The position numbers and the translations under genes were made by a program. Shown here in pieces: positions 2,240 to 17,105 of a stretch of DNA of 64,000 nt. Every line of letters starts with the position of its first letter. Positions within the stretch are counted from its first letter, which is position 1. Source of the DNA: Planctomycetota bacterium (lineage in GTDB: Bacteria > Planctomycetota > UBA1135 > UBA2386). The stretch is from positions 4,064,001 through 4,128,000 of the forward strand of contig OZ245838.1 of NCBI GenBank assembly GCA_965228735.1, read 5' to 3'. The notes under the pieces are model-generated. The model saw nothing but the letters and a program-made list of their open reading frames with translations. It was not told the DNA's origin and made no database searches.

Positions 2240-3034
2240 TCAGGACACCAGTTCGCCGCGCATTACCGTGACGGCGGCGCCGCGCAGGAGCACGCGGTCC
2301 TCGATGAGCTCGACGCCGACCTCACCCCCGCGGGCCGAGGCCTGGTAGCCACGCATGCGAGTCTTGCCGAGCTTCTCGCTCCAGTAGGGCGCGAGGGCGC
2401 AGTGGGCCGAGCCCGTGACCGGGTCCTCGTCGACGCCGACGGCCGGGCCGAAGAAGCGCGAGACGAAGTCGAACTTCTTGGCCGTCGCACGCGCGGTGAC
2501 GATCAGGCCGCGGCCGCCGAGCCGGGCGACCTCGCGGAAGTCCGGCGCGTAGTTCACGACCTGGGCCTCGCTGCCGACCTCGACGAGCAGGTCCTCGCCG
2601 GCTTCGACGACGTTGCGCGGCGCGCGACCGAGCGCCTTCTTCAGCGCCGCGGTCGGCTTCTTGCTGCGCAGGGCCTGGGACGGGAAGTCGAGCACGATCT
2701 GGCGACCGTCGGGCGCCGCGGTGAGCACACCGCTCTTCGTGCGGAACTCGAGCAGCCGGTCGGGCGGTGCCACGCCCTCGGAATAGAGCACGTAGGCGGC
2801 CGCGAGCGTCGCATGGCCACAGAGCGCGACCTCGACCGTCGGCGTGAACCAGCGCAACGAGAACCCGCGCTTGGTCGGGCACACGAAGGCGGTCTCCGAG
2901 AGGTTCATCTCCGCGGCGATCGATTGCATCCACCGCGCCGGTTTGGAGTCGGCGAGCAGGCAGACCGCGGCGGGATTGCCGCCGAACGGTCGCGCGGTGA
3001 AGGCGTCGACGTGAAAGCATGGGACGGTCGTCAT
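2240..3034 (-). CDS. PhzF family isomerase/epimerase
   Basis: VDAFT...GGNPAAV, EMNLSETAF, LRWFTP..EVALCGHATLA, EDPVTGSAHC. Start set at MTTVP (3034). Confidence 0.93.
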   Translation of the reverse strand: MTTVPCFHVDAFTARPFGGNPAAVCLLADSKPARWMQSIAAEMNLSETAFVCPTKRGFSLRWFTPTVEVALCGHATLAAAYVLYSEGVAPPDRLLEFRTKSGVLTAAPDGRQIVLDFPSQALRSKKPTAALKKALGRAPRNVVEAGEDLLVEVGSEAQVVNYAPDFREVARLGGRGLIVTARATAKKFDFVSRFFGPAVGVDEDPVTGSAHCALAPYWSEKLGKTRMRGYQASARGGEVGVELIEDRVLLRGAAVTVMRGELVS

Positions 3035-3057
3035 TGCGCATGTTGTAGCATGCGAGC

Positions 3058-3624
3058 GTGCGTTGTTTCGTCGCTCTCGATCTGCCACGGCCCGTGTGCA
3101 ACTACCTCGCGAGGACCGCGCGTGAATCGCTGACCAAGGGCACGATCAAGTTCGTGCCGCCGACCCAGTTGCACGTCACGCTCGTTTTCGCGGGCGACAT
3201 CGACGTGGATACGGCCCGCGCCCTCGAGGACGCCATCACGGCAGCGGACCTCGCGCCGATCGAGCTCCGCCTCGACGGCCTCGGGCGATTCCCGGCCAAG
3301 GGCGAGCCACGCGTGATCTGGGCCGGCCTCGCCGGCAGCGGCGTCGAACCGCTGCACCGGCTCCAGCGCGAACTCGCGGACTGGGCCGGCGCGGCCGGCA
3401 TCGAGCCCGACGACCGCCCGTTCTCGCCGCATGTCACGCTCGGCCGCGTGAAGAGCGCGTTCGGCGCCTACGCGGTCGTCGACGAACTCGAGAAGGTCGG
3501 CGAGACGCTGCGGGACAAGCCGTTTACCGCGACCGCGCTCACGCTCTACGAGAGTGAACTGCAGCCGGGCGGCCCGATCTACCGGCCGCGGTTGCGGCGC
3601 GAACTGCCGGGCGTCGACGGCTGA
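3058..3624 (+). CDS. thpR: RNA 2',3'-cyclic phosphodiesterase (2H phosphoesterase, LigT family)
   Basis: MRCFVALDL start, two HxT motifs (LHVTL, FSPHVTLGR), PRVIWAG, LYESEL...GPIY. Confidence 0.92.
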   Translation: MRCFVALDLPRPVCNYLARTARESLTKGTIKFVPPTQLHVTLVFAGDIDVDTARALEDAITAADLAPIELRLDGLGRFPAKGEPRVIWAGLAGSGVEPLHRLQRELADWAGAAGIEPDDRPFSPHVTLGRVKSAFGAYAVVDELEKVGETLRDKPFTATALTLYESELQPGGPIYRPRLRRELPGVDG

Positions 3625-3630
3625 TCCCGG

Positions 3631-4941
3631 TCAGCGTCGCCGGGGCGCTCGGCCCTTGGGCGCGAACAGGACGAACCACGTGCTGAGGGCGGCGGTGAGC
3701 CGCAGTCCTTGGATCCAGTTGATGTACGGCACGAGCGCATCCTTGTCGTCCGGCCCCGCGGCCACGAGTTCCGCGAAGCGCGCTTCGACGGCGAACGCCC
3801 ACCAGACCCAACCGACGAACAACGCCGCCGCAACGAACTGCATGACCCGCCGCCCCCAACCGGGCTGGAACAGACCGATCCCGGCGATGGGCAGCAACAA
3901 CAGCCACCAGAACAGCCAGCCGCCACGGGACCAGATGGCGAGCGGACCGAACAACGCGAACCCGCTCACGGTCAGCGCGCCGGCCAGGCCGAGCCCGAGC
4001 AGCACCGCGTCGAGACGGCTGCGCGGATCGAGCGCGTGCCGCCCGAGCGGGTGCAGCAGGAGCAGCAGGTTGAAGAACGGCGTCGCGCACGCCGTGAACA
4101 ACACGAAGAACAGCCACGCGTAGCTCACCACCTCACCGGCTGTCTGGTAGCCGCCATCGCGCAAGGCCTGGCCGCCGAAGCGCGCGACGAGCCACACGCC
4201 GACGAGGATCTGGATCTGCCGCCCGCGCGGAAACCGGTTGAGCCACAGGAACCACCCGAGCACGAGCCGATAGAGCGGGTTCTTCGCCTTGAGGGCTTCG
4301 GCGAGACCCTGCCGCGACGAGGCCAGCGTCGGGTCACGCCTCAGCGCTTCCTGGAAGTGTTGCAGCGCGCCGTCGACGTCCTTCTGCTGCAGCAGCGCGA
4401 ATCCGCGCGCCTGATGCGTGTACGGATTGTCGGGGTCGCGCATCAACGAGGCATCGAGCGTGTCCGACGCCTCGTTGCCGCGCCCCATGTTGGTGAGCGC
4501 GACCGACCGCAGGTTGAGACAGTCCGAGTCCTCCGGGTCGATCGCGAGCCCGGCCTCTGCAGCGGCGAGCGCGTCCGACCACTTCCGCCCCGACAAGTGG
4601 ATCTGCGCGGCGATGCGGTGCCCGCCCACGTCCTCCGGGTCGATCGCGATCGCGTGAGTGATGGCCGCCGTGGCCTCGTCGAGGCTGCCGCGCTCGTGAT
4701 GCACGAGCGCGAGAGCGTGATGCGTGATCGGCTCGTCCGGCGCGAGCCCGACCGCGGTGCGGGCCGATTCGAGGGCGCGGTCGACCTCCCCGAGCGCGCT
4801 CTGCGCGAGCGCGATGAACGCGTGGGCCACACCGTTCTCGGGCACCTCGACGAGGTGCGCGCGGAACTGCTCGATGCACAGCTCCCAACGTTGCTGCTGA
4901 TACAGCAGCGCGCCGCGCTGGAACGTCGCTTCGGCCGTCAT
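3631..4941 (-). CDS. TPR repeat protein with C-terminal multi-pass membrane domain
   Basis: About 6 TPR-like repeats (A..LAPD, AIAIDPED, ALRRDP) followed by about 6 hydrophobic segments. ATGA overlap with the upstream gene. Confidence 0.85.
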   Translation of the reverse strand: MTAEATFQRGALLYQQQRWELCIEQFRAHLVEVPENGVAHAFIALAQSALGEVDRALESARTAVGLAPDEPITHHALALVHHERGSLDEATAAITHAIAIDPEDVGGHRIAAQIHLSGRKWSDALAAAEAGLAIDPEDSDCLNLRSVALTNMGRGNEASDTLDASLMRDPDNPYTHQARGFALLQQKDVDGALQHFQEALRRDPTLASSRQGLAEALKAKNPLYRLVLGWFLWLNRFPRGRQIQILVGVWLVARFGGQALRDGGYQTAGEVVSYAWLFFVLFTACATPFFNLLLLLHPLGRHALDPRSRLDAVLLGLGLAGALTVSGFALFGPLAIWSRGGWLFWWLLLLPIAGIGLFQPGWGRRVMQFVAAALFVGWVWWAFAVEARFAELVAAGPDDKDALVPYINWIQGLRLTAALSTWFVLFAPKGRAPRRR

Positions 4942-6122
4942 TGCCGTTTCCCGCCATCGAACCAGCCGAGAACCGCGGCGGCCGAGTGCGAAGCCTTACC
5001 GACGAGCTCACGAACGCCGCCCGACCCTTGCCGAAGCTGGACCTCGCGAACGCCGGGTGAGAGGGCGAAGCGGACGACGACGATCATGAACAGAGTGACG
5101 ATAACGCCGTACATCACCGGGCACAGGTCGGCCCCGAACGGCGTCAGCTGAGCCAAGGTCAGAAGCGCCGCAACGACCGCCGTCACCACCGTTGCACCGC
5201 GCAGAAACCACTCGCTCGAGGGCACGACCACGCGTGCGAGGTCGTGGCGAAACACGAGCCAATCCTGCGCAATCCTCGTCCCGGAGAACGAGAGAATCAC
5301 GAGAACGGGTAGGCCCGAGAAGTTCATCAAGCCGGCCTCGACCAACTTGGCGCCACTCATCCAGATCGCCATGATCAGCCCAACGCACCAGGCATCCGGC
5401 AAGGCCGCCCTCTGGCGCGCCCGTTGCCGAATCGCCTCGGCGAGGCTCTCGCGCGTCCACTCGTCGTTCGGATCCGCCGCGAGCGCAGTTCGGAACCAAC
5501 GCTCGGCAACCGCTGGCCGGTCTTGGCGCAGCGCGGCGTCCGCGACGCGACGGTGGACCGCGAGGGAATCGGGCGCAAGTCGCAGCGCTGCCCTCACGAC
5601 CTTGTCCGCCGCACCATGCCGTTCGAGCGCCCGGAGAAGATCGATCTTCTCGACGCGGAACGACACGTTCTCGGGGTCCATCGCGAGCGCCACGTCGATC
5701 TCCGCCAGGCCTTCACCGGGCCGGTCCAGCGCATCGAGCAATTCGGCCTTGATCGCGTGCATGTAGGCGCTCTCTGGCCAGAGCTCGATCGCGCGATCGA
5801 AACACGCGACCGCGCTCTCGGCATCACCGTCGGACCACAGCACGATCCCGCGCGTGTAGTTCGCCCACGCGCTCTCGGGATCGATCACGAGCGCGCGCTC
5901 GGACGTCGCCCGCGCCGCGTCGTGGTCGTCCAACCGAGACTGGACGAAGGCCAGGATAGTGAGGCCATGCACCGAGTCCGGATGCGCGGCCAGGCCGCGC
6001 AACGCGAGCGCCGCAGCTTCGCGATACCGACCGAGTTCGCTGAGCTGGAACGCCCGATCGAAGTCCGCCTCTGCGGCGTCGTTGTCACCCTCGGCCGCAG
6101 GCACCAGGCCGCCTGCGCTCAC
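4938..6122 (-). CDS. TPR repeat protein with C-terminal membrane segments (paralog)
   Basis: TPR repeats (ALVIDPES, AIELWPES, ALAMDPEN, ALRLAPDS, ALAADPND) and about 4 TM segments. GTG start at 6122 overlaps the upstream TGA (GTGA). Confidence 0.8.
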   Translation of the reverse strand: MSAGGLVPAAEGDNDAAEADFDRAFQLSELGRYREAAALALRGLAAHPDSVHGLTILAFVQSRLDDHDAARATSERALVIDPESAWANYTRGIVLWSDGDAESAVACFDRAIELWPESAYMHAIKAELLDALDRPGEGLAEIDVALAMDPENVSFRVEKIDLLRALERHGAADKVVRAALRLAPDSLAVHRRVADAALRQDRPAVAERWFRTALAADPNDEWTRESLAEAIRQRARQRAALPDAWCVGLIMAIWMSGAKLVEAGLMNFSGLPVLVILSFSGTRIAQDWLVFRHDLARVVVPSSEWFLRGATVVTAVVAALLTLAQLTPFGADLCPVMYGVIVTLFMIVVVRFALSPGVREVQLRQGSGGVRELVGKASHSAAAVLGWFDGGKRQ

Positions 6123-7291
6123 CGGAACACGCCCTTCCAGATCGAGAACATCACGATCGTGATGCCGACCGTGATCCACGCGCCGCGCGTCTTACGGCGA
6201 TCATCCTCACCGCCGACACCGACGACCATTCCGCCGATCGCGAGAACCACGGTCATCGTCGTCGCCGCGACGGCGACGCTGCGAGCGCGAGGGATTGGCT
6301 CCGCACCGAGCGCCATCGTGACCGCGCCGCTGCCCCCAACGATCACGTAGGCCGCGATCGCCGCCGCGATGACCTTCTGATAGCCGTACAGCGCGTGGCG
6401 GCCGATCGGGTGCGCGAGCAGCAGAACGTCGGAGAGCGCCGTCGGGACCAGCAACGCCGCCATCACGAGCGCCCGATGGAACGAATCCTCGAACAGCCCG
6501 AGCCCCGCGAGCGCGATCATCGTCACCGCAAAGACCAGCCATGGGGAACCCGAGCGAACCTGCCGCGCCACCCAGAGCCGCAGCGCCAGGAACGGCCGAT
6601 ACAGCCGGTTCTGCGCGCGCAGCGCATCGATGAGTCCTTCGCGCGCTTGCGAGTCCGCGTGGTCCATGCCGAGCGCAGCCTGGAACAACTCCATCGCGCG
6701 TTCGGCGTCGCCACCCCGCAACGCGGCGCTGCCCGCGCGCCGGTGGACACCACGCGCGCCGGGATCGAGCCGCAAGACCTCGGCCACGACCTCGTCGGCG
6801 GCAGCGTCGCGCCCGAGCTCCTGCAGCAGATCGATGCGCACGAGCCGGTACTCCACGCTCTCGGGTTCGAGACGCAGCGCGACCTGCACCGGTTCGAGCC
6901 CCGCCTTGGGGCGGCCTGCTGCCCCGAGGAGCTCGGCCTTCAGAGCGTGAAAGTCAGCGTGCTCCGGCAGGATCGCGATCGCGCGATCGATGCTCTCGAC
7001 CGCCGCGTCGAGATCGCCCTTGGCCCACAACACGCTGCAGTGCGTGCTGTGCGACCACGGGTCATCGGGCGCCAGTCCGAGCGCGCGCCGGCTCGTCGCG
7101 AGCGCGCTCTGCACGTCGTTCTGCCGCGCCTGCGAGAACGCCAGCAAGTTGAGCGCCGGCACATTGTCCGCATCGATCGCGAGCGCCTGCATCGCCGCCT
7201 CCGCCGCCGCCTGGTCCCGGCCCATCCGGCTCAGCTCTTCCGCCTTCTGCAGGAACGCGCCCAGCGGCTCGCGGTGGCCGCCAGCACTCAC
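6119..7291 (-). CDS. TPR repeat protein with C-terminal membrane segments (paralog)
   Basis: C-terminal part of ORF 6119..7900. GTG at 7291 overlaps the AAA stop (GTGA). TPR repeats (ALGLAPDD, AIAILPEH, ALRLEPES) then about 4 TM segments. Confidence 0.8.
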   Translation of the reverse strand: MSAGGHREPLGAFLQKAEELSRMGRDQAAAEAAMQALAIDADNVPALNLLAFSQARQNDVQSALATSRRALGLAPDDPWSHSTHCSVLWAKGDLDAAVESIDRAIAILPEHADFHALKAELLGAAGRPKAGLEPVQVALRLEPESVEYRLVRIDLLQELGRDAAADEVVAEVLRLDPGARGVHRRAGSAALRGGDAERAMELFQAALGMDHADSQAREGLIDALRAQNRLYRPFLALRLWVARQVRSGSPWLVFAVTMIALAGLGLFEDSFHRALVMAALLVPTALSDVLLLAHPIGRHALYGYQKVIAAAIAAYVIVGGSGAVTMALGAEPIPRARSVAVAATTMTVVLAIGGMVVGVGGEDDRRKTRGAWITVGITIVMFSIWKGVFR

Positions 7292-8637
7292 AGCTTGAGG
7301 TAGTCCTTGAGGTCGTCGTAGAGACCCGCGTCGTTGGCGTAGAGCACGTAGTTCTTCGCCGTGGCGAACCACTCGCTCGTCGTCGGCTTCTGCGCCTTCG
7401 TGGCCTTGAGCAGGTCCTTGGTGACGAGCGGCTCGGGTACGCCGCTCTGAATCGCGTCGTCGAGCTTGGCCTCGATCGCGCGATCGACGACCGCCTTGAG
7501 ATCGGCGCCGGAGTAGCGGTCGGTCTTGGCGGCGACCGCCTCGAAATCGACGTCGCGCTGCGGTTTGCCGGCCATCATCAGGCGCAGGATCGCGACGCGC
7601 GCGGGCCGGTCCGGCGGCGGCACGAAGATCACGCGGTCGAAACGCCCCGGGCGGCGAAACGCGCTGTCCATGTGCCACGGCGCGTTGGTCGCCGCGAGCA
7701 CGAGCAGCCCCTCGTTGTCCGCCTGCATGCCGTCGAGCTCGGCGAGGAACTGGTTGATCGTCTGCCGCCCGGCGCTGTTCTTCATGTCGTTGCGGCTCGC
7801 GCCGAGCGCGTCCACCTCGTCGAAGAACAACACGCACGGCGTGTTCTGCCGCGCGGTCTCGAAGATCGAGTGCAGGTTGCGCTCGCTCTTCCCGATCCAC
7901 ATGTCGAGCACGTCGTGGATGCCGATCGCCAGGAAGCCCGCGTCGACCTCGCCGGCCGTCGCCTTCGCGAGGAACGTCTTGCCGCAGCCCGGCGGTCCGT
8001 ACATGAGGATCCCACCGCCGACCTTCTTGCCGTACGCCTGGTAGAGGTCAGGCCGCTGCAGCGGCAGCACGATCTTCTTGTTGATCTGATCCTTGAGCCC
8101 GTCGAGCCCGCCGACGTTGACGAACTTGACGTCCGAGCGAACCGGACGCAGCTTGCTCGGATCCGCGCTGTCGTCGTCGCCGCCGCCGGCCTGCCGCAGC
8201 ATGCCGTCGACGAGCTCGTCGTCCTCCGCCATGCCCTGGAGGCTCACGCCGAGCCGCTCGCCGAGCTCGTCGTCGACGAGCGACTCATCGGCCTCGATCG
8301 CTTTTCGATAGCTCCGCACCGCGCCGTCGACGTCGCCCTCCGCGAGCATGAGCCGCGCGAGCTCGACCCGGGCGCGGCCGCTGCCGTTCTGCACGAGCTG
8401 CTCGAGGACGACATGGGCGGCCGAGTTCTTGTTGCGAGCGCGGTAGGTCTTCGCGAGCAGCAGATGCCCGACCTCGGAATCCGGCACGATCTTGAGCAGC
8501 GCCAGCAGCTCCTTCTCCGCGTCCTCGTAGTGGCCGTAGGCGAACAACGTCTCCGCCAGGTGCTGGCGAAGGGGGCCATTGTCGGGGCTGGCTTCGAGCG
8601 CAGCCCGCAGCGAACGGATCGTGGCGTCGGCATCCAT
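7288..8637 (-). CDS. AAA+ ATPase (classic clade, Vps4/Cdc48-like) with N-terminal TPR domain
   Basis: Walker A GPPGCGKT, pore loop DMWIG, Walker B LFFDEVD, SRH ATNAPWHMDSAFRRPGRFD, and YSGADL. N-terminal TPR-like helices. Start set at MDADA (8637). Confidence 0.93.
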   Translation of the reverse strand: MDADATIRSLRAALEASPDNGPLRQHLAETLFAYGHYEDAEKELLALLKIVPDSEVGHLLLAKTYRARNKNSAAHVVLEQLVQNGSGRARVELARLMLAEGDVDGAVRSYRKAIEADESLVDDELGERLGVSLQGMAEDDELVDGMLRQAGGGDDDSADPSKLRPVRSDVKFVNVGGLDGLKDQINKKIVLPLQRPDLYQAYGKKVGGGILMYGPPGCGKTFLAKATAGEVDAGFLAIGIHDVLDMWIGKSERNLHSIFETARQNTPCVLFFDEVDALGASRNDMKNSAGRQTINQFLAELDGMQADNEGLLVLAATNAPWHMDSAFRRPGRFDRVIFVPPPDRPARVAILRLMMAGKPQRDVDFEAVAAKTDRYSGADLKAVVDRAIEAKLDDAIQSGVPEPLVTKDLLKATKAQKPTTSEWFATAKNYVLYANDAGLYDDLKDYLKL

Positions 8638-8718: not shown

Positions 8719-10128
8719 ATGGTCTTCTCCAGCAGCGTCTTCCTGTTCGCCTTCCTGCCGGCGTTCCTGCTGCTGTACTGGCTCAGCCCGCGCCCGTGGC
8801 GCAGCCTGACGATCGCCGTCTCCAGCTTCGTGTTCTACGGCTGGTGGCGCGCCGACTTCGTGCTGCTGCTGCTGTTCAGCGCCGTCGTCGACTACTGGAT
8901 CGGCGGGCGGATCGTGCGCGCCCACGCGGCCGGCGCGACGGGGCGACCCGGCCGCTGGCTGTTGCTCTCGCTCATCACCAATCTCGGCCTGCTCGGCTGG
9001 TTCAAGTACGCGAACTTCGGCGCCGACACGTTCCGTGAGCTGCTGCGCGCGCTCGGCTTCGCCGGCGACTTCGCGTGGGTGGACGTCGTGCTGCCCATCG
9101 GGATCTCGTTCTACACGTTCCAGACGATGAGCTACACGATCGACCTGTACCGCCAGCAGGTGCGGCCAGCCGAGCGCTTCATCGACTTCCTCTGCTACGT
9201 GTCGATGTTCCCGCAGCTCGTCGCGGGTCCGATCGTGCGCTACTCGCTCATCGCGGACGAACTGCGCGACCGCCGAACGACGCTGGCCGGCATCTACCGC
9301 GGCGTCCTGTTCTTCCAGATCGGACTCGTGAAGAAGGTGCTCGTCGCGGACGCGCTCGCGCCCTTCGCCGACCGCGCGTTCGACATCCCGGGCGCGATCG
9401 AGCTCGGCACGACGCACGCATGGCTCGGCGCGGTCGCCTACGCGTTCCAGATCTACTTCGACTTCTCCGGCTACAGCGACATGGCGATCGGACTCGGGCT
9501 CATGCTCGGGTTCCACTTCCCGATCAACTTCGACTCGCCGTACCGCGCGGACTCGATCACCGACTTCTGGCGCCGCTGGCACATCTCGCTGTCGACGTGG
9601 TTGCGCGACTACCTCTACGTGCCGCTCGGCGGCAACCGGCGTGGCCCGGTCCGGACCTACGTCAACCTCGCGCTCACGATGCTGCTCGGCGGGCTCTGGC
9701 ACGGCGCCGCGTGGAACTTCATCGCCTGGGGTGGCTACCAGGGCTGCTGGCTCATCGTCGAACGGGCGACCGGCAAACGGCCGTGGTACGGTGCGGCGCC
9801 GCGACTCGTCCGGATCGCCGTGACGTTCGTGCTCGTGCTGTTCGGCTGGGTGCTGTTCCGCGCCCACGACCTCGGTCACGCCATGAACTACGCCGGCGCG
9901 ATGCTCGGACTCGGCAATGGCGAGACGGACTTCGCGGCGCTCCGCCCGGGACCGTGGGCCGACATGTTGATCGCCGGCCTCGTCGTCTGGCTGCTGCCGA
10001 CGAGCCAGCGCCTCGTGCCGCGCGCGGGCCTCGCCGTCGTGCTGCTGCTGCAACTGCTCTTCGCGTTCGCCGTCGCGGTCGTGCAGCTCGCGCCCGAAGA
10101 GATCCCGTTCCTCTACTTCCGCTTCTGA
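8719..10128 (+). CDS. MBOAT family O-acyltransferase (AlgI/PatA-like)
   Basis: LPIGISFYTFQ, FPQLVAGPIVR, QIYFDFSGYSDMAIG, FWRRWHISLS, LGGLWHGA, C-terminal PFLYFRF. Confidence 0.95.
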   Translation: MVFSSSVFLFAFLPAFLLLYWLSPRPWRSLTIAVSSFVFYGWWRADFVLLLLFSAVVDYWIGGRIVRAHAAGATGRPGRWLLLSLITNLGLLGWFKYANFGADTFRELLRALGFAGDFAWVDVVLPIGISFYTFQTMSYTIDLYRQQVRPAERFIDFLCYVSMFPQLVAGPIVRYSLIADELRDRRTTLAGIYRGVLFFQIGLVKKVLVADALAPFADRAFDIPGAIELGTTHAWLGAVAYAFQIYFDFSGYSDMAIGLGLMLGFHFPINFDSPYRADSITDFWRRWHISLSTWLRDYLYVPLGGNRRGPVRTYVNLALTMLLGGLWHGAAWNFIAWGGYQGCWLIVERATGKRPWYGAAPRLVRIAVTFVLVLFGWVLFRAHDLGHAMNYAGAMLGLGNGETDFAALRPGPWADMLIAGLVVWLLPTSQRLVPRAGLAVVLLLQLLFAFAVAVVQLAPEEIPFLYFRF

Positions 10129-10135
10129 GTCCACG

Positions 10136-11659
10136 ATGAGCCGAGCCGAGATCGCAGTCACGCACGCGGACGACGCACCCGCGGCCGAACCGTTGCAGCG
10201 GGTCGCCCGCGGCACGGCGCTGGGCGCATGCGCCGCGACGCTGCTCGGCTTCGCCGCGGTCGAGGCGTTCGGCCCCGACCCGGTCGCGAATGCACGCGCG
10301 CAGGTGCTCGCGCACTCGGCCGAGCGCGCGCCGTCCGTCGACCCCGCCTGGCTCGACGAATCGCCCGCAAAGGTCGCACGCCAGGACGCACCGCCGCGGC
10401 TCCTGGCCGCGTGGCATCGCACCCCGCAGTTCATGTACCTGTGCGAGGTGAACGAGACCGTGCTGCGCGCGCTGTGGCAGCCCGGCGTCGGCCTCGGACC
10501 CGATGCCCCGCGCGAGTTCGACACGTTCTCGATGCCGGGCGGCGCGCCGCACCCGATCTTCCGCTACCCGCGGTCGACGACGATGCCCGACGGGCTCACG
10601 ACCAACCGCTTCGGTTTCCGCGGCCCCGACGTCGCGCTCGACAAGCCGGCGGACACGGTGCGCATCGCGTTCGTCGGCGCGTCGGCGACGGTCGGCAATC
10701 ACTTCCTCGAGTGGAGCTACCCCGAGTTCGTCGGCCACTGGCTCACGCTCTGGGCGCGCGCGAACGACCTGGGCGTCGACTTCGAGGTGCTCAACGCCGG
10801 GCGCGAGTCGATCCAGTCGCGCGACATCCGCGCGATCGTCGAACACGAGGTGCTGCCGCTCGCCGTCGACTACGTCGTCTACTACGAGGGCCAGAACCAG
10901 TTCGGCGCGCCGTCGCTCCGGCGCCACGTCGAGGTCGACGGCGATGCCGGAACGACGCCGCCCGCGGACCTCGTGCTCGACCTCGCCGCCGCCGATTCGC
11001 TGCAGCCGCACTGGCTCGACGTCCTGTGCCGCGACGTTCACAACGCGCGCCGCCTGCGACGACTGCTCGGCGTGCATGCCGACCTGCCAGAGCCACCGAA
11101 ACCGCAGCAGAGGCTGCAGCTGCCTGCCGGTCTGACCGCGACCGATCCCGACCTCGACCGCGCGCGGGAAGTGCTCGAGCTCGGAACGATCCTCGCCGAC
11201 CTCGACGCGATGAAACGCGCGTGTGACGCCCAGAGCACCCGCTTCGTGATGTGCTCGTTCGACCGGCTCGTGCGCGATGGCATGCGCGTCGACCTCGCGC
11301 CGGCGCCCTCGGTCTACAGCCGACTCAACGGCGAGTACTGGCCGCTCAGCTACGAGACGATCGCAGCGCTCGACGAACTGCAGAACCGCTACTTCGAGGC
11401 CTGGGCCGCGGCCCGCAACGCCCCGTTCCTCGACATCGCCGCGGCCATGCCCGACGAACCCGCGCTCTTCACCGACCCCGTGCACTCGACGGAGAGCGGC
11501 GTGCGCCTGCGAGCCTGGGTCGTGTTCACCGAGCTCGTGCGCGTGATCGAAGCCGACCTCGCAGCCGACCGCGTGCCCGTCCCCGACACCGAACCGACCC
11601 CGCGCCACCCGTTCCTGCAGCCGGCCCGCCGGCTCACGGCGGAAGACCTGGGCGGTTGA
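10136..11659 (+). CDS. SGNH/GDSL-like hydrolase or acetyltransferase, probable partner of the MBOAT
   Basis: TNRFGFRG, RIAFVGAS (block I variant), LNAG, YEGQN, DPVH (DxxH). Starts 7 bp after the MBOAT and has an N-terminal hydrophobic anchor. Confidence 0.7.
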   Translation: MSRAEIAVTHADDAPAAEPLQRVARGTALGACAATLLGFAAVEAFGPDPVANARAQVLAHSAERAPSVDPAWLDESPAKVARQDAPPRLLAAWHRTPQFMYLCEVNETVLRALWQPGVGLGPDAPREFDTFSMPGGAPHPIFRYPRSTTMPDGLTTNRFGFRGPDVALDKPADTVRIAFVGASATVGNHFLEWSYPEFVGHWLTLWARANDLGVDFEVLNAGRESIQSRDIRAIVEHEVLPLAVDYVVYYEGQNQFGAPSLRRHVEVDGDAGTTPPADLVLDLAAADSLQPHWLDVLCRDVHNARRLRRLLGVHADLPEPPKPQQRLQLPAGLTATDPDLDRAREVLELGTILADLDAMKRACDAQSTRFVMCSFDRLVRDGMRVDLAPAPSVYSRLNGEYWPLSYETIAALDELQNRYFEAWAAARNAPFLDIAAAMPDEPALFTDPVHSTESGVRLRAWVVFTELVRVIEADLAADRVPVPDTEPTPRHPFLQPARRLTAEDLGG

Positions 11660-11685: not shown

Positions 11686-12723
11686 TTACGTTGTCAGGAC
11701 GATCTTGCCGAGCGCTTCGCGCGACTCGAGCAGGCGATGGGCCTCTCCGACCTCCGTCATCGGCAGCGCGCGGTCGAGCACCGGGCAGAATCGGCCCTGG
11801 TCGAACATGCGCAGGACCTGGCGCAGGTCGCCCTTGCTGCCCATCGTCGAACCGAGGATCGACAGGCTCTTGAAGAACACCGCGTGCAGTGACAACTGCA
11901 CGTCGCCGCCGGTCGTCGCGCCGCAGGTCACCATGCGGCCGCCGCGCGCGAGACACTTGAGCGAACCGGCGAACGTCGCCGCGCCGACGTGCTCGAAGAC
12001 GACCTGCACGCCGGCCTTGCCGGTCAGCGCGCGGACCTCCTTGCTGAAGTCGGTCGCCTGGTAATCGACCACGTGCTGCGCGCCGAGCGCTGCGACGCGG
12101 CGACACTTCTCCGCGCCGCCGGCCGTCGCGATGACCTGCGCGCCGAGGGCGTTGGCGATCTGCACTGCCGCGCTGCCCACGCCCGAGAGCCCCGCGTGCA
12201 CGAGCACGGCCTCGCCGGCGCGCAGCTCGGCGCGGCGAACGAGCATGTTCCACGCGGTCTGGAACACGAGGCAGATCGACGCCGCCTGCTCGAACGACAG
12301 GTCCTTCGGCTTGGGCGCGACGTTGGCCGCGGGCAGGCACACGAACTCGGCCGCCGTGCCATCTGAGCTCTCGCCGAGGATGTGATACTCGCGGCACAGC
12401 TGATCCATGCCCGAAAGACACGCCTCGCAGTGACCGCACGACACGCCGGGCAGCACGACGACCTCGTCGCCGACCTGCACGTGACTCACATCGGCACCGA
12501 CCGCGTCGACGACGCCAGCTCCGTCGCTGCTCGGGATCAACGGCAACGGGAACGTGTGACCCGGAACGCCCCGGCGCACCCACGTGTCGAGGTGGTTGAG
12601 CCCGATCGCTCGCATCGCGACCCGCACCTGGCCCGCGCGCGGCTCGGGGATCTCGCGTTCTTCGTGCAGCAGTCGATCGAAGTCGCCGTGCTCGCGCACG
12701 ACGATGCAACGCATGGTGGGCAT
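11686..12723 (-). CDS. Zinc-binding alcohol dehydrogenase / MDR family oxidoreductase
   Basis: GLNHLD, structural Zn site CGHCEACLSGMDQLC, HAGLSGVGSAA, GRMVTCGAT, GKIVL. Confidence 0.92.
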   Translation of the reverse strand: MPTMRCIVVREHGDFDRLLHEEREIPEPRAGQVRVAMRAIGLNHLDTWVRRGVPGHTFPLPLIPSSDGAGVVDAVGADVSHVQVGDEVVVLPGVSCGHCEACLSGMDQLCREYHILGESSDGTAAEFVCLPAANVAPKPKDLSFEQAASICLVFQTAWNMLVRRAELRAGEAVLVHAGLSGVGSAAVQIANALGAQVIATAGGAEKCRRVAALGAQHVVDYQATDFSKEVRALTGKAGVQVVFEHVGAATFAGSLKCLARGGRMVTCGATTGGDVQLSLHAVFFKSLSILGSTMGSKGDLRQVLRMFDQGRFCPVLDRALPMTEVGEAHRLLESREALGKIVLTT

Positions 12724-12942
12724 GCGGCCGTTCTACCGCGCGCAGCGCCTCGCCCCAACGAGACCGGGGATCGCTATGGCCGCGAGCGCCGGCGCGACTG
12801 CAAATTCGACAGTCGCGCGTGCCGACGATCTGTCACGATGACGGCCCCGGAACGGGGGCGTCATCCCGACGCGGTGCCGGCAGTGATCCCGAGCCTCGCG
12901 AGACACCGGGACTTGCGCGCGCCATTCGCGCCTCGCGTCGGA

Positions 12943-12960
12943 CTGGCACGCTCGTTGCAT
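12943..12960 (+). promoter_or_regulatory. Sigma54 (-24/-12) promoter upstream of hsp20
   Basis: CTGGCACGCTCGTTGCAT matches TGGCACG-N4-TTGCW with exact GG-N10-GC spacing, in an intergenic position. Confidence 0.75.
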
Positions 12961-13061
12961 CCCGGTGCCCGAACTCGCTGTGCATGTCGAATCGACGCGC
13001 GCGGTGCGCGTCGTGCTGCACAGCCATCCTGTGGTCCTTTGCGACAACAACGGAGAAAGAC

Positions 13062-13511
13062 ATGCAGTACATGACCGAACGTCCGACCCGTCTCGCCGGG
13101 GGATTGCTCGATGTGCCCCGGACCGTGGACGATCTCTTCCAACGCTTCTGGGGTGACGTGCACCAGCCCCGAACCGCCAACTCCTGGCGGCCGCACGTGG
13201 ACGTCGTGGAGACGCCGGAGGCCTACCTGCTCCGGGCCGAGATGCCGGGGGTCAACCCGGATGACATCGAGATCACGCTCGCCGGCGACGTGCTGACGAT
13301 CCGCGGCGAGAAGGTCGTCGAGAACACGCTCGAAGGCGAGAGCTGGTGCCTCAGTGAACGCACCGGCGGCCGCTTCGAGCGCAGCTTCAAGCTGCCCGGA
13401 CCGCTCGCGGACGACCAGGTCGAGGCCGAGTCCCGACACGGCATTCTCGCGATCCGGGTGCTCAAGGCCGAGCAGGCCAAGGCACGTCGGATCAAGATCC
13501 GGTCGGCCTGA
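13062..13511 (+). CDS. Hsp20/alpha-crystallin small heat shock protein
   Basis: WRPHVDVVET, AEMPGV, LTIRGEK, ERTGGRFERSFKLP, HGILAI, IKI tail. GGAG RBS before the ATG at 13062. Confidence 0.93.
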   Translation: MQYMTERPTRLAGGLLDVPRTVDDLFQRFWGDVHQPRTANSWRPHVDVVETPEAYLLRAEMPGVNPDDIEITLAGDVLTIRGEKVVENTLEGESWCLSERTGGRFERSFKLPGPLADDQVEAESRHGILAIRVLKAEQAKARRIKIRSA

Positions 13512-13583
13512 TCGCGCGCGACGCAGAGGCCGGCGGCCGGATGCTGGCCGCGGGCGTCCTGCCCCGCCACGGCCGCGGAGAGG

Positions 13584-16500
13584 TCACGCCGACACCTCCG
13601 CGCCCGTGGCCTCGATCGCCGTCTGCTTCACGGCCTTGAGGTCGAGCTTGCCGGTGCCGAGCACGGGCAGCTCGTCGACCATGACGAACTGGTCCTGCCG
13701 CGGCACGAACAGGGCGGGCAGGCCGCGTTCGCCGAGCGCCGTGACGATGTCCGCGATCTCGTCCTGCGGCATCGTCGTGAGCACGACGAGGCGTTCGCCC
13801 TTCTTCGGATCGGGCACACCGGTGACCGCGAACACGCGGTCCTCGCGCCCGACGATCTGCTGCAGGTGCTCCTCGACCGTGCCGTGCGGGACCATCTCGC
13901 CGCCGATCTTGGAGAACCTAGACAGGCGATCCGTGAGGAACAGGAAGCCGTCGTCGTCCAGCCGGCCGATGTCACCCGTGACGTAGTAGCCCTCGTGCAT
14001 GACCTCTGCCGTGAGGTCATCGCGACCGAGGTAGCCGCACATGACGTTGGCGCCGCGCACGAGCACGAGCCCGGCCTCGCCGCGCGGCAACGGCTCGCGC
14101 GTGTCCGGATCGACGATCTCGATCGTCACGCCGGGCAGCGCGCGTCCCACCGAACCGCGCCGGCAGCCGGCCTGGTAGAAGCCGGCCGCGCGGTAGCCCG
14201 GCGAACTCGTCGAGACGACGGGCGAGGTCTCGGTCGCGCCGTAGCCCTGCACGGGACGAAGCCCGAACTTGTCGAAGAAGGCGTCGGCGAGCTGTTCCGT
14301 GAGCTTCTCCGCAGCCGTCAACGCGATGCGTACCGAACCCAACTGGCCGGGCTCACAGCGCCGCATGTAGAGCTGCAAGAACGTCGGCGTCGCCAGCAGC
14401 ACCGTGATCTCGTGCCGCGCGACGAGCTCGCCGATGACGGCCGCGTCGAGCGGATTGGGGTGGAACACCAGGCGGGCGCCCTGCTGCGCGACGTACCACA
14501 GCGCGAAGTTGCCGAACGAGTGGAACAACGGCAACACACCGAGCACGCTGTCCTTGCCGGTCAGCGGGATCACCTGCGCGACCGCCTCACTGTTACACTG
14601 CAGATTGCCGTGCGAGAGCATGATGCCCTTGGGCTCGCCCGTGCTGCCGCTGCTGAACAGGATCGCCGCGAGGTCGTCGCGCTCCACCGCGCGTTCGGCG
14701 CCGCACGCGCGCTCGAGCGCCCGCACCGGCAGGAACAGCCCGCGCAGCAGCGCGCCGAAGCGTTGCGCACCCGTGATGCCGGCCATGACGTCCTCGAGCA
14801 TCACGAGCTCGACGCCCGCCGGCAGCTCGACCGGCATTCGTTCGAGGAACGCGCGCGACGTGATCACCGTGCGCAGCTCGGCCTGGCGCACCGCCGAGTG
14901 GAGCGCGTCCTTGCCGACGGTGTAGTTGAGCGCGACCGACGTGCGACCGGACAGGCTCATCGCGATCGCCGTGAGCGCGCCGCCGATCGACGGCGGCAGC
15001 AGCACGCCGACCTTGCTCTGCCCCGCGAGCTTGCCGCGCAGCGCCCGCGCGAGCGCCACGCTGCCGGCGAGCGCCTTCCCGCGCGACACCGACTTGCCGG
15101 CGCTGTCGAGCAGGAGCGTGCGCCACGGGCCGCGCCGAACGCGCCGCACGAAGTCGTAGTGCAGCGGCTTCAGCAACTCGGCGCGGTGATCCCAGGCCTT
15201 GCCCGCGAGTTCTTCGACGCGGGCCCGAACCTCCGCCGGCTTGGCGGTGTTCGGGAGCGCTTCCCCGAACGACACCGTGATCGGGCAGGGCACCTGATTC
15301 GGCAACCACTGCACCCGCCCACCGAGCGCACTGAGCAGCGTGCCGTAGACCCGATCGAGGTGCACCGGCACGATGACCGCGTTCCGCCCCTTCGCGATGC
15401 GTTCCATGCCGCGGCGGAACGGCAGCGTGCTGCCGACGCGACTGATCTCACCCTCGGCGAAGAGGCAGACGACCTCGCCGTCGTCGAGCGCCTGGCCGGC
15501 GTTGCGCAACGCCTTGATCACGACGCGCGGCCCGCCCGCGGCGGAAACCGGGATCGCGCCGAGCGCTTGCATGAACGGCTTGAGGTACGGCCGTTCGTAC
15601 CAATACGTGTCGATGACGAACCGGATCGGTCGATCCGTCGAGGCCAGCAGGAAGAGGCCATCCATGAACGACACGTGGTTCGGCATGAGCAGCACGCCGC
15701 CCTTCTCCGGCACGTGGCGCTGGCCGAACACCGTGAGCCGATAGAACGTGTGCGCCAGCAGGACGACGATCATCCGCAGCAGCGCGCTCGGCAGCAGCCA
15801 GATCGCCCACGTGGTCGCGATCACCGTGAGCGCCGCGGCGACGAGCAGGATCGTCCCGCAGTCCGCCCCGAGCTGGGACAGGAACAGGCAGCCGAGATTG
15901 CCGGCGAGGATGCCGACGAACGACAGGCCGTTGTAGAGCGCGATCACGGCGCCGCGACGCGACTCGGGCGCGAGCCACTGGACGAGCGCGTTGATCGGCA
16001 CGACGACGAGGCCGCTGGCCAGACCGAGCACGACCATCAGCAGGAACGTCCCGACGATGCCGGGAGTCCACAGACCGAAGATGCCGGTGCCGACCGCGAG
16101 ACCGATCGCACCGAGCGGGATGAGGCCGGTCTCGACCTTGCCCTTCGACAGCTTGCCCGCGAGCATCGCGCCCGCGCCGACGCCGATCGCGAACAGCGCG
16201 TACGGCGCGCCCGCCCACTTGTCGGAGAACTCGAGGACCTGCTTGCCGTAGATCAGGACGTTCTGCCCGAGCAGGCTCGCGAGCCCCCAGAACGCCACCG
16301 AACCGAGCGTCGCGAGCCAGAGCGCGCGTTCGCCGCGGACCGCGCGCCAGGCGCCCTTGATGACCTGACCGACGGACTCGTCGCCGCCGACAGCCGGCAC
16401 GTGCGGCACGCGCAGCGCAGCGAAGAAGCCGGCGACCGACAGCGCGGTCAACACGACGCCCGCCGGCCACGCCGACGAGCTGACTTCGAGCAGCGCGCCG

Positions 16501-17009
16501 CCCGCGACCGTGCCGAGGATGATCGCGAGGAAGCTCGCGGCCTCGAGCTTGCCGTTCGCCGCCGCGAGCCGTTCGTGCGGCAGCGACTCCGGCAGGATGC
16601 CGTACTTGGCCGGCGCGAAGAACGAGCTCTGCAAACCCATGCCGCCGAGCACGACGAGCGGCATCCAGCCCGACGGCTGCAGCCAGAGGGCGAACGTGCC
16701 AGCCGCCATGAGCACGAGCTCCGCGCCCTTCGTAGCGACGAGCAGCGTGCGCTTGCTGACGCGGTCGCCGAACACCATCGCCGGGACCGAGCCGAGCATC
16801 AGCGGCAGTGTGAGGATGACGAACGCCCAGGTCGTGACCGCCTGCGCCGCCGCCTCGTCGCCCGCGGGCACCGCCGCGATGCCGAGCAACGCGACGATCA
16901 TCTTGAACGCGTTGTCGTTGAAGGCCCCGAAGAACTGCGCCACGAGCAGTCCGCCCAACGGGCTGCGGCTCGATCGTGCGCTACGGCTCTGGATCTCGGT
17001 CTCGGTCAT
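13584..17009 (-). CDS. aas: Aas-type fusion: MFS (LplT-like) + PlsC acyltransferase + acyl-ACP synthetase
   Basis: QFFGAFNDN and FAPAKYGILPE (MFS), NHVSFMD and FAEGEISR (acyltransferase), FSSGSTGEPKG, GYGATETSP and TGDIG...RFSKIGGEMV (AMP-binding). Confidence 0.92.
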   Translation of the reverse strand: MTETEIQSRSARSSRSPLGGLLVAQFFGAFNDNAFKMIVALLGIAAVPAGDEAAAQAVTTWAFVILTLPLMLGSVPAMVFGDRVSKRTLLVATKGAELVLMAAGTFALWLQPSGWMPLVVLGGMGLQSSFFAPAKYGILPESLPHERLAAANGKLEAASFLAIILGTVAGGALLEVSSSAWPAGVVLTALSVAGFFAALRVPHVPAVGGDESVGQVIKGAWRAVRGERALWLATLGSVAFWGLASLLGQNVLIYGKQVLEFSDKWAGAPYALFAIGVGAGAMLAGKLSKGKVETGLIPLGAIGLAVGTGIFGLWTPGIVGTFLLMVVLGLASGLVVVPINALVQWLAPESRRGAVIALYNGLSFVGILAGNLGCLFLSQLGADCGTILLVAAALTVIATTWAIWLLPSALLRMIVVLLAHTFYRLTVFGQRHVPEKGGVLLMPNHVSFMDGLFLLASTDRPIRFVIDTYWYERPYLKPFMQALGAIPVSAAGGPRVVIKALRNAGQALDDGEVVCLFAEGEISRVGSTLPFRRGMERIAKGRNAVIVPVHLDRVYGTLLSALGGRVQWLPNQVPCPITVSFGEALPNTAKPAEVRARVEELAGKAWDHRAELLKPLHYDFVRRVRRGPWRTLLLDSAGKSVSRGKALAGSVALARALRGKLAGQSKVGVLLPPSIGGALTAIAMSLSGRTSVALNYTVGKDALHSAVRQAELRTVITSRAFLERMPVELPAGVELVMLEDVMAGITGAQRFGALLRGLFLPVRALERACGAERAVERDDLAAILFSSGSTGEPKGIMLSHGNLQCNSEAVAQVIPLTGKDSVLGVLPLFHSFGNFALWYVAQQGARLVFHPNPLDAAVIGELVARHEITVLLATPTFLQLYMRRCEPGQLGSVRIALTAAEKLTEQLADAFFDKFGLRPVQGYGATETSPVVSTSSPGYRAAGFYQAGCRRGSVGRALPGVTIEIVDPDTREPLPRGEAGLVLVRGANVMCGYLGRDDLTAEVMHEGYYVTGDIGRLDDDGFLFLTDRLSRFSKIGGEMVPHGTVEEHLQQIVGREDRVFAVTGVPDPKKGERLVVLTTMPQDEIADIVTALGERGLPALFVPRQDQFVMVDELPVLGTGKLDLKAVKQTAIEATGAEVSA

Positions 17010-17105
17010 CGGTCGTTTCCTCGGCTCCCTGAGTCTCCGAAGTATCGCCATTTCCTTCGCCCTCGGTCCGTTACTTGTCGATTATCCATCGTTAAGCTCT
17101 GCTTT

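Follow-up and report, generated by a model that had tools for sequence, protein, structure and literature searches.

A TPR-headed AAA ATPase and its TPR-membrane partners form a conserved bacterial two-gene module with an expanded, fast-changing partner set in a planctomycete

We analysed a four-gene operon within a window of 64,000 nucleotides from a Planctomycetota bacterium (GCA_965228735.1, contig OZ245838.1, positions 4,064,001-4,128,000 of the forward strand; genome G000). Its open reading frames (ORFs) all lie on the minus strand and encode, in transcription order, an AAA ATPase with a tetratricopeptide repeat (TPR) head and three TPR-membrane proteins, partners A, B and C. An earlier note on this DNA took the four genes as the unit, but what is conserved elsewhere is a two-gene module, a TPR-headed AAA ATPase with a partner of six TPRs and multiple transmembrane (TM) segments. 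The dyad itself has already been noted; in the variant found at this locus the partner set is enlarged and changes fast. New here are a family-specific C-terminal tail of the ATPase that tracks the presence of the partner, a short-partner subtype with an unnamed third membrane gene, and the make-up of the three partners, which comprise one conserved orthologue and two fast-evolving paralogues. In our best model, which we consider an even call, one unfoldase docked by interchangeable membrane adaptors would extract membrane clients.

The ATPase and partner genes are linked far more often than chance would allow. A profile scan of GTDB confirmed 538 relatives, from which we kept 80 loci, 59 with a single-AAA ATPase and 21 others, mostly archaeal two-domain Cdc48, as controls. 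An adjacent TPR-TM gene on the same strand is present at 48 of the 59 single-AAA loci and a divergent one at L046; six have no partner, and at the remaining four the contig breaks off too early to show the upstream side. None of the 21 control loci carries a partner gene. The linked loci belong to nine phyla (Planctomycetota, Verrucomicrobiota, Cyanobacteriota, Acidobacteriota, Bacteroidota, Bacillota, Myxococcota, Pseudomonadota and Actinomycetota), and cultured carriers include Streptomyces, Paenibacillus, Flavobacterium and Calothrix. The earlier note had made its proposal depend on the AAA and TPR-TM genes being linked in other genomes, and across these nine phyla they are. Among 37 close downstream partners, 14 share a 4-bp overlap with the ATPase gene. 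In two metagenome-assembled genomes a gene is fragmented, through either misassembly or genuine decay: the partner is split over two ORFs at L024:7321-8576, and the ATPase is broken over several at L074:5986-7368.

The same association is seen within the order to which the window belongs. The ATPase occurs in 33 of 151 genomes, which are kin rather than independent samples and in each of which 11 candidates were scored; 25 of these 33 also have the long form of the partner, and the remaining 118 genomes have no partner. Of the eight ATPase genomes without a long partner, six carry a short one next to the ATPase gene, G194 lacks both the ATPase tail and a partner, and G184 lies outside the locus survey. 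No third gene family beyond generic enzymes is common to the whole locus set (92 neighbours scanned). The spacing varies at three loci: the partner lies 2.3 kb from the ATPase at L247 (G108:C4) and ~9 kb off at L248 (G133:C98), and at L252 (G153:C130:40013-42806) it faces the ATPase on the opposite strand.

The ATPase consists of a TPR head (residues ~2-131), a linker (138-156), one classic AAA domain with its lid (~168-400) and a two-helix tail (420-449). Its AlphaFold monomer model has a mean predicted local distance difference test score (pLDDT) of 92.7 and shows a helical head, low confidence in the linker at 138-156 and two additional C-terminal helices at 420-447. The hallmarks of a classic AAA unfoldase are all present: Walker A (GPPGCGKT, 214-221) and Walker B (FFDEVD, 271-276) motifs, an aromatic pore loop 1 (MWIG, 246-249, with an aromatic residue at 247 in 99% of 150 rows), and a second region of homology (SRH) with ATNAPW at 316-321 and the arginine-finger stretch RRPGRFD at 328-334. 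The pore loop and the SRH motif had both been read correctly in the earlier note, as had the lack of a TM helix and of a protease domain: the highest 19-residue hydropathy is 1.38, and a Pfam domain search found no protease domain, leaving the protein without the TM anchor and the M41 domain of FtsH. An MIT domain is likewise absent from all 12 Pfam matches at E<=0.001, where TPR families appear instead. TPR_19 is detected in 49 of 54 family ATPases, and the N-domain of the model aligns to TPR proteins at Z ~15. The closest named homologues are from Planctomycetota. The genome encodes one ATPase of this family; the sole other match, at 36% identity, groups with FtsH.

The final 30 residues of the ATPase are conserved to the same degree as its catalytic core. 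In 150 rows W423 is invariant and N429, N435, G438, Y440 and D441 reach 91-95%; the tail has no sequence match in the PDB. A profile of this region scores 33-71 bits in 53 of the 59 single-AAA loci, including all 49 with a partner, and also matches the ATPases of 18 of 20 relatives. At seven loci without an adjacent partner (L034, L052, L061, L069, L070, L262 and L263) it scores <=14 bits; L067 ends before the tail region. Since L034, L262 and L263 nest within the ATPase family, tail and partner appear to have been lost together at least twice. This distribution makes the tail a candidate partner-docking element.

Phylogenetic analysis places the ATPase beside Vps4 and CdvC. We built a quick tree of 112 rows and a careful one of 59, with reference AAA sequences from Asgard, Thermoproteota and bacterial genomes and without euryarchaeal Vps4 groups, eukaryotic Vps4, katanin, spastin or Msp1. 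The ATPase family forms one clade (98/93), and its nearest relatives are Micrarchaeota TPR-AAA proteins and unnamed multi-AAA proteins (99/97). Together they are sister to Vps4 and CdvC in a joint clade (100/97) that excludes Cdc48 D1 and D2, PAN and FtsH; Vps4 and CdvC themselves form a clade (100/99) that leaves the family outside, so that the two are sister groups and the family is not nested. A tree forcing the family and its relatives onto Cdc48 D2 was rejected by the approximately unbiased test (p-AU 0.027). The trees are compatible with an archaeal origin of the family and are silent on direction. Among the Micrarchaeota relatives (L061, L067, L069 and L070), L061 and L070 have a hydrophobic C-terminus; the unnamed relatives P0125-P0127, P0133 and P0134 have two or three AAA domains.

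The SRH of the family is a mosaic of a Vps4-type tryptophan and a Cdc48/PAN/FtsH-type RPGRF finger. TNxPW occurs in 49/52 family rows, 33/36 Vps4/CdvC rows and 0/56 Cdc48/PAN/FtsH rows, and the ATNxPW motif, which the earlier note took as a mark of the Vps4/katanin/spastin clade, marks a wider group. The RPGRF finger is found in 47/52 family rows versus 0/36 Vps4/CdvC rows and is shared with Cdc48, PAN and FtsH. Makarova et al. recognize Vps4 by an MIT domain or by ESCRT genes in the neighbourhood (PMC11188069); the ATPase has no MIT domain, and there are no ESCRT genes among the 92 neighbours or the seven window genes scanned. The Vps4/Cdc48-like character noted earlier thus stands in its Vps4/CdvC grouping, although with its TPR head, missing MIT domain and RPGRF finger the protein is not Vps4 proper. 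Nor is it Cdc48/p97, as the profile of the two-domain proteins (TIGR01243) gives 213 bits against a cut-off of 803. The p97 protein is the top-ranked match in sequence and fold searches, but PDB sequence searches cannot rank the clades because two-domain p97 entries swamp them.

Membrane remodelling, which the earlier note had considered, is unsupported in its ESCRT form because TPRs replace the MIT domain and no ESCRT-III-like filament gene, neither PspA nor Snf7, was found in the genome, which is 93% complete. Across the order, PspA is present in three of 151 genomes, and the 33 ATPase carriers do not include any of these three.

A dyad in which the gene for an AAA+ ATPase resembling VPS4 is followed by a gene for a TPR protein with six TM helices was described in a few sentences, with no test, by Ravi et al. 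in 2024, with ACB74714.1 of Opitutus terrae as exemplar (PMC11237479). It is almost certainly the module described here: architecture and gene order agree, partner C has six modelled helices, and we find the pair in the phyla named there (Cyanobacteria, Bacteroidetes, Verrucomicrobia and Planctomycetes). Our family includes Opitutaceae members (L025), although ACB74714.1 itself is absent among the matches listed. The MIT label given to the N-domain in their table does not fit the TPR head, and one partner is described. The passages that treat the dyad do not mention actinobacterial, Bacillota, Myxococcota or Pseudomonadota members, the short subtype and its third gene, the tail or tandem partners (PMC11237479). 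The statement in the earlier note that no function had been characterized agrees with our literature search, which had most subscription papers outside its reach and found no functional study of the dyad; the module as such had nevertheless been noted.

Comparison with better-known motors gives partial likenesses. Archaeal Vps4/CdvC shares the single AAA domain, TNxPW, the sister position and a helical N-terminal interaction domain, but the ATPase here lacks the MIT domain and an ESCRT-III neighbour, has RPGRF in place of RRRF and ends in a different tail. Cdc48/p97/VAT is the top sequence and fold match and shares the RPGRF finger, and its adaptor-dependent extraction is our working analogy; it carries two AAA domains behind a barrel rather than one behind a TPR head. 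The Pex1/Pex6 motor, docked by Pex15/PEX26, is held at a membrane and acts on membrane-associated proteins. Msp1/ATAD1, a member of the Vps4-containing meiotic clade (PMC7018516), is also a membrane-held motor that extracts membrane-associated proteins, but Msp1 has its own N-terminal TM anchor, which this ATPase does not.

In the model of partner C (pLDDT 95.4), twelve TPR helices are followed by a capping helix and a junction helix, and six long helices span 239-426. A six-pass topology with cytoplasmic TPRs is suggested by the basic inside loops and by the acidic loop at 395-405. The Foldseek matches listed for it were all of TPR type, with no likeness to ESCRT-III or Pex15/PEX26 among them, and residues 200-436 matched only unnamed or TPR clusters in the ESM Atlas, all under 0.9. 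The best-conserved parts of the long subtype are TPR5-6, the junction helix and the inside loop. Across partners the TPR part is constant, whereas the number of predicted TM segments in the membrane half varies between 1-2 and 7. No polar residue is invariant there, which speaks against a conserved enzymatic or channel function. The junction motifs that the earlier note listed are present, with HPxGRHAL confined, as listed there, to A and C. Partner B has HDLARVV at that place and no NxLYR helix, and the C-terminal profile of the family misses its C-terminal half. We rejected the possibility that a frameshift conceals a normal C-terminus of partner B, as the match lies in frame 0 only.

The short form of the partner, a TPR part with 1-2 TM segments, comes with a third gene. 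Its product of ~150 residues has 3-4 TM segments, an N-terminal DDLLxPxL motif and further FFGG ... NxxRLG motifs. It was found at 13 loci (seven in the GTDB survey, six in the order survey) in five phyla. Of the 151 genomes of the order, 9 encode it, eight of these with a short-partner-type ATPase (six in the alignment); it occurs in 0/24 genomes with the long partner only, and was not found in the window's genome. It has no convincing Pfam or NCBIfam family, and homology to the membrane half of the long partner was rejected (hhalign probability 0.3% and 1.7%). We regard it as a candidate client or co-adaptor. In Anaerocolumna (L030:3979-4605) another gene lies upstream of the partner; its product has an N-terminal hydrophobic segment and a TPR-like C-terminus and does not match the small-protein profile.

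These data can be read as an adaptor-based extraction system. The TPR-TM partners would dock the soluble, predicted hexameric ATPase on the cytoplasmic face of the inner membrane, through its tail, its TPR head or both, onto the last TPRs and the junction helix of the partner. The docked motor would then thread, and so extract or unfold, membrane-associated client proteins, the variable membrane half of the partner selecting the client; additional partner copies would thereby widen the client range. The hexamer and pore threading follow from membership of the AAA family, and the TPRs are placed in the cytoplasm because they start at the N-terminus without a preceding hydrophobic segment and because the inside loops are basic. 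This reading is favoured by the cross-phylum linkage, the co-occurrence of tail and partner, the faster divergence of the partners' membrane halves, the presence of one family ATPase for three partners in the window's genome, and the extra partners away from the operon in G017 and G158.

Several observations weigh against it. The partner in distant loci was called mostly from its TPR part, a common fold, and lies far from the ATPase in G133 and on the opposite strand in G153. The three family members without a tail have long branches (0.99, 3.74 and 5.82), so that their missing tails may be a sign of general decay and not of a lost docking site. By fold, the ATPase is closer to p97 D2 (Z 28.7, root-mean-square deviation 2.2, 262 aligned) than to archaeal Vps4 (Z 24.8, 2.7, 256), and Vps4-like behaviour therefore cannot be assumed. 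Finally, the data fit adaptor and substrate roles of the partners alike; an adaptor or substrate role, as proposed in the earlier note, is the best reading of what the sequences suggest.

The substrate role can be put more specifically. The partner may itself be the client, oligomerizing or changing shape in the membrane and being reset by the pull of the ATPase, and so standing in for the ESCRT-III of archaea, as is implied by the dyad passages of Ravi et al. We consider this unlikely, even though the dyad travels alone, the long subtype has no conserved third gene, no other candidate client is linked, and the sister clade Vps4 recycles a protein encoded next door. The modelled partner is a TPR solenoid with a helical bundle, and the Foldseek matches listed for it are TPR proteins with no ESCRT-III among them; the range of TM segments in its membrane half is hard to reconcile with one polymer; and in the short subtype the small DDLLxPxL membrane protein could be the client instead. 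A more far-reaching version of the adaptor reading, in which an ESCRT-free sister of Vps4 would be an extractase with swappable TPR-TM receptors on a dedicated tail, diversified between strains against foreign or damaged membrane proteins, seems to us a long shot of much the same standing.

Three partners were seen in the window's genome only; two occur in tandem in G001, G005, G117, G177 and G202, and two lie nearby at L029, L040, L059 and L062. G017 and G158 have one extra partner each, away from a single canonical operon. The three proteins are paralogous, as the earlier note had it, but not equivalent. Partner C groups with the usual single partners found beside the ATPase elsewhere and is the conserved orthologue, while A and B belong to a separate, faster clade with G001b, G202b and the stand-alone copies of G017 and G158 (99/98). 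Partner B is likely a later duplicate of A (96/76) on a branch of 1.76. Identity between A and B is 44% over the TPRs but falls to 16% over the TM part. Against its G001 counterpart, partner A retains 47% identity in the TPRs and 28% in the TM half, and partner C 62% and 56%. Within the genus the ATPase is 82% and partner C 59% conserved. No relative of partner B was found in Joint Genome Institute (JGI) metagenomes, and G001 was the one match in the 90 further genomes of the taxonomic family.

A single 4,887-nt contig from a related strain (X14, depth 7.3) differs from the window at 62/1,542 bases over partner C and its flank and at 40/1,149 over A (3.5-4.0%), against 37/238 bases in the alignable part of B (15.5%). 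For the rest of B, 769 and 141 unalignable letters replace the 793 and 144 of the window. A strain 96% identical elsewhere has a far more diverged sequence of the same size in the B slot, as judged from lengths on one contig. Run X9 is near-identical across partner B, with two amino-acid changes. In partner C of another strain, 10 of 18 substitutions fall at residues 397-414, a region that is also length-variable among relatives; the cluster could be one recombination tract.

Such patterns might be expected of a conflict or defence module, in which the partners would sense or neutralize proteins of phages or competitors at the membrane, the ATPase would remove them, and the paralogues would be products of an arms race. 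The patchy distribution of the ATPase in the order, the divergence of the B slot and the clustering of partner C substitutions in the predicted outward loop speak for this, but we think it improbable. Almost all of the 92 neighbours scanned have housekeeping or metabolic roles; HipA and WYL were each matched once, and the surroundings are not defence islands. PADLOC matches only the shared AAA core; the NCBIfam IetA profile reaches 113 bits against a cut-off of 510, and the partners are TPR-TM proteins rather than the peptidase of IetAS-type systems. No family member was found in 50,697 phage records, 72,556 plasmid records gave 11 matches, all non-mobilizable, and the conservation of the ATPase and partner C within the genus also argues against it.

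Codon adaptation is lowest in partner B, whose value of 0.556 falls between the 10th and 25th percentile, and uncorrected ratios of non-synonymous to synonymous differences (pN/pS) in the TM halves of A and B are 0.83-0.87, with pS saturated. In a neutral simulation, 8/200 runs stayed free of stops at 66% identity and 1/200 at 55%; neutral drift would rarely leave the open frame of partner B. That the working system is the ATPase with partner C alone, A and B being redundant duplicates drifting towards loss, is the least probable of these readings: most genomes have one partner and B lacks conserved elements, but the A/B clade is old and retained in G001, G202, G017 and G158, the frames and both 4-bp overlaps of A and B are intact at a TPR identity well below that simulated, and another strain retains DNA of the same length in the B slot.

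If extraction through docked adaptors is correct, the module has a wider meaning. Protease-coupled FtsH is the usual bacterial means of removing membrane proteins. A protease-free motor with a separate membrane receptor would add a second route, retained in nine or more phyla, and would reveal a role of the Vps4 lineage where ESCRT-III is missing. Concrete experimental handles are offered by the tail, by the third gene and by the presence of three partners for one motor.

Table 1. Coordinates of the operon genes and of related features (window positions unless a locus is given)
Feature	Coordinates	Strand	Remark
TPR-AAA ATPase, 449 aa	8637-7288	-	ORF call, domains, predicted structure
ATPase C-terminal tail, consensus EWFxTARNYxxYxNxxGxYDD	7291-7380	-	Candidate partner-docking element
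Partner A, 390 aa: six TPR, junction helix, ~5 predicted TM	7291-6119	-	Fast second-paralogue clade
Partner B, 394 aa: six TPR, 3-4 predicted TM	6122-4938	-	Longest branch among the three partners
Partner C, 436 aa: six TPR with an amphipathic junction helix; predicted TM segments match six helices (239-426)	4941-3631	-	
Predicted outward loop and TM6 start of partner C, residues 397-414	3700-3753	-	Topology from charge
Small third protein	L031:4602-5123		
Small third protein	L036:4674-5114		
Small third protein	L038:4484-4942		
Small third protein	L048:4176-4613		
Small third protein	L055:4086-4586		
Small third protein	L032:7086-7556		
Small third protein	L046:5502-5927		

The four genes are chained by 4-bp start/stop overlaps, GTGA at 7288-7291 (ATPase/A), GTGA at 6119-6122 (A/B) and ATGA at 4938-4941 (B/C), exactly as first described. 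No promoter-like site was found for the operon, and terminators were at chance level only. Among 24 sequencing runs, none of RNA was listed as holding the sequence, a result that carries no information on expression. A possible natural fusion of all four genes (P0574, 1567 aa, NCBI nr) was rejected. It is a 100%-identical join of the four ORFs that skips short pieces at every junction, most likely an artefact of a eukaryotic gene caller applied to a bacterial contig.

The operon is bordered by a divergent MBOAT gene from 8719 and a convergent 2H-phosphoesterase gene ending at 3624, with 81 bp between the starts of the MBOAT and ATPase genes. The MBOAT acyltransferase gene is followed by an ORF of 507 residues with no Pfam match at 1e-6 (together 8719-11659, plus strand). 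Further out (2240-3624 and 11686-17051) the neighbours are ordinary: besides the 2H-phosphoesterase, they include PhzF-like, zinc-binding dehydrogenase and Hsp20 genes and an MFS-acyltransferase-AMP-binding fusion.

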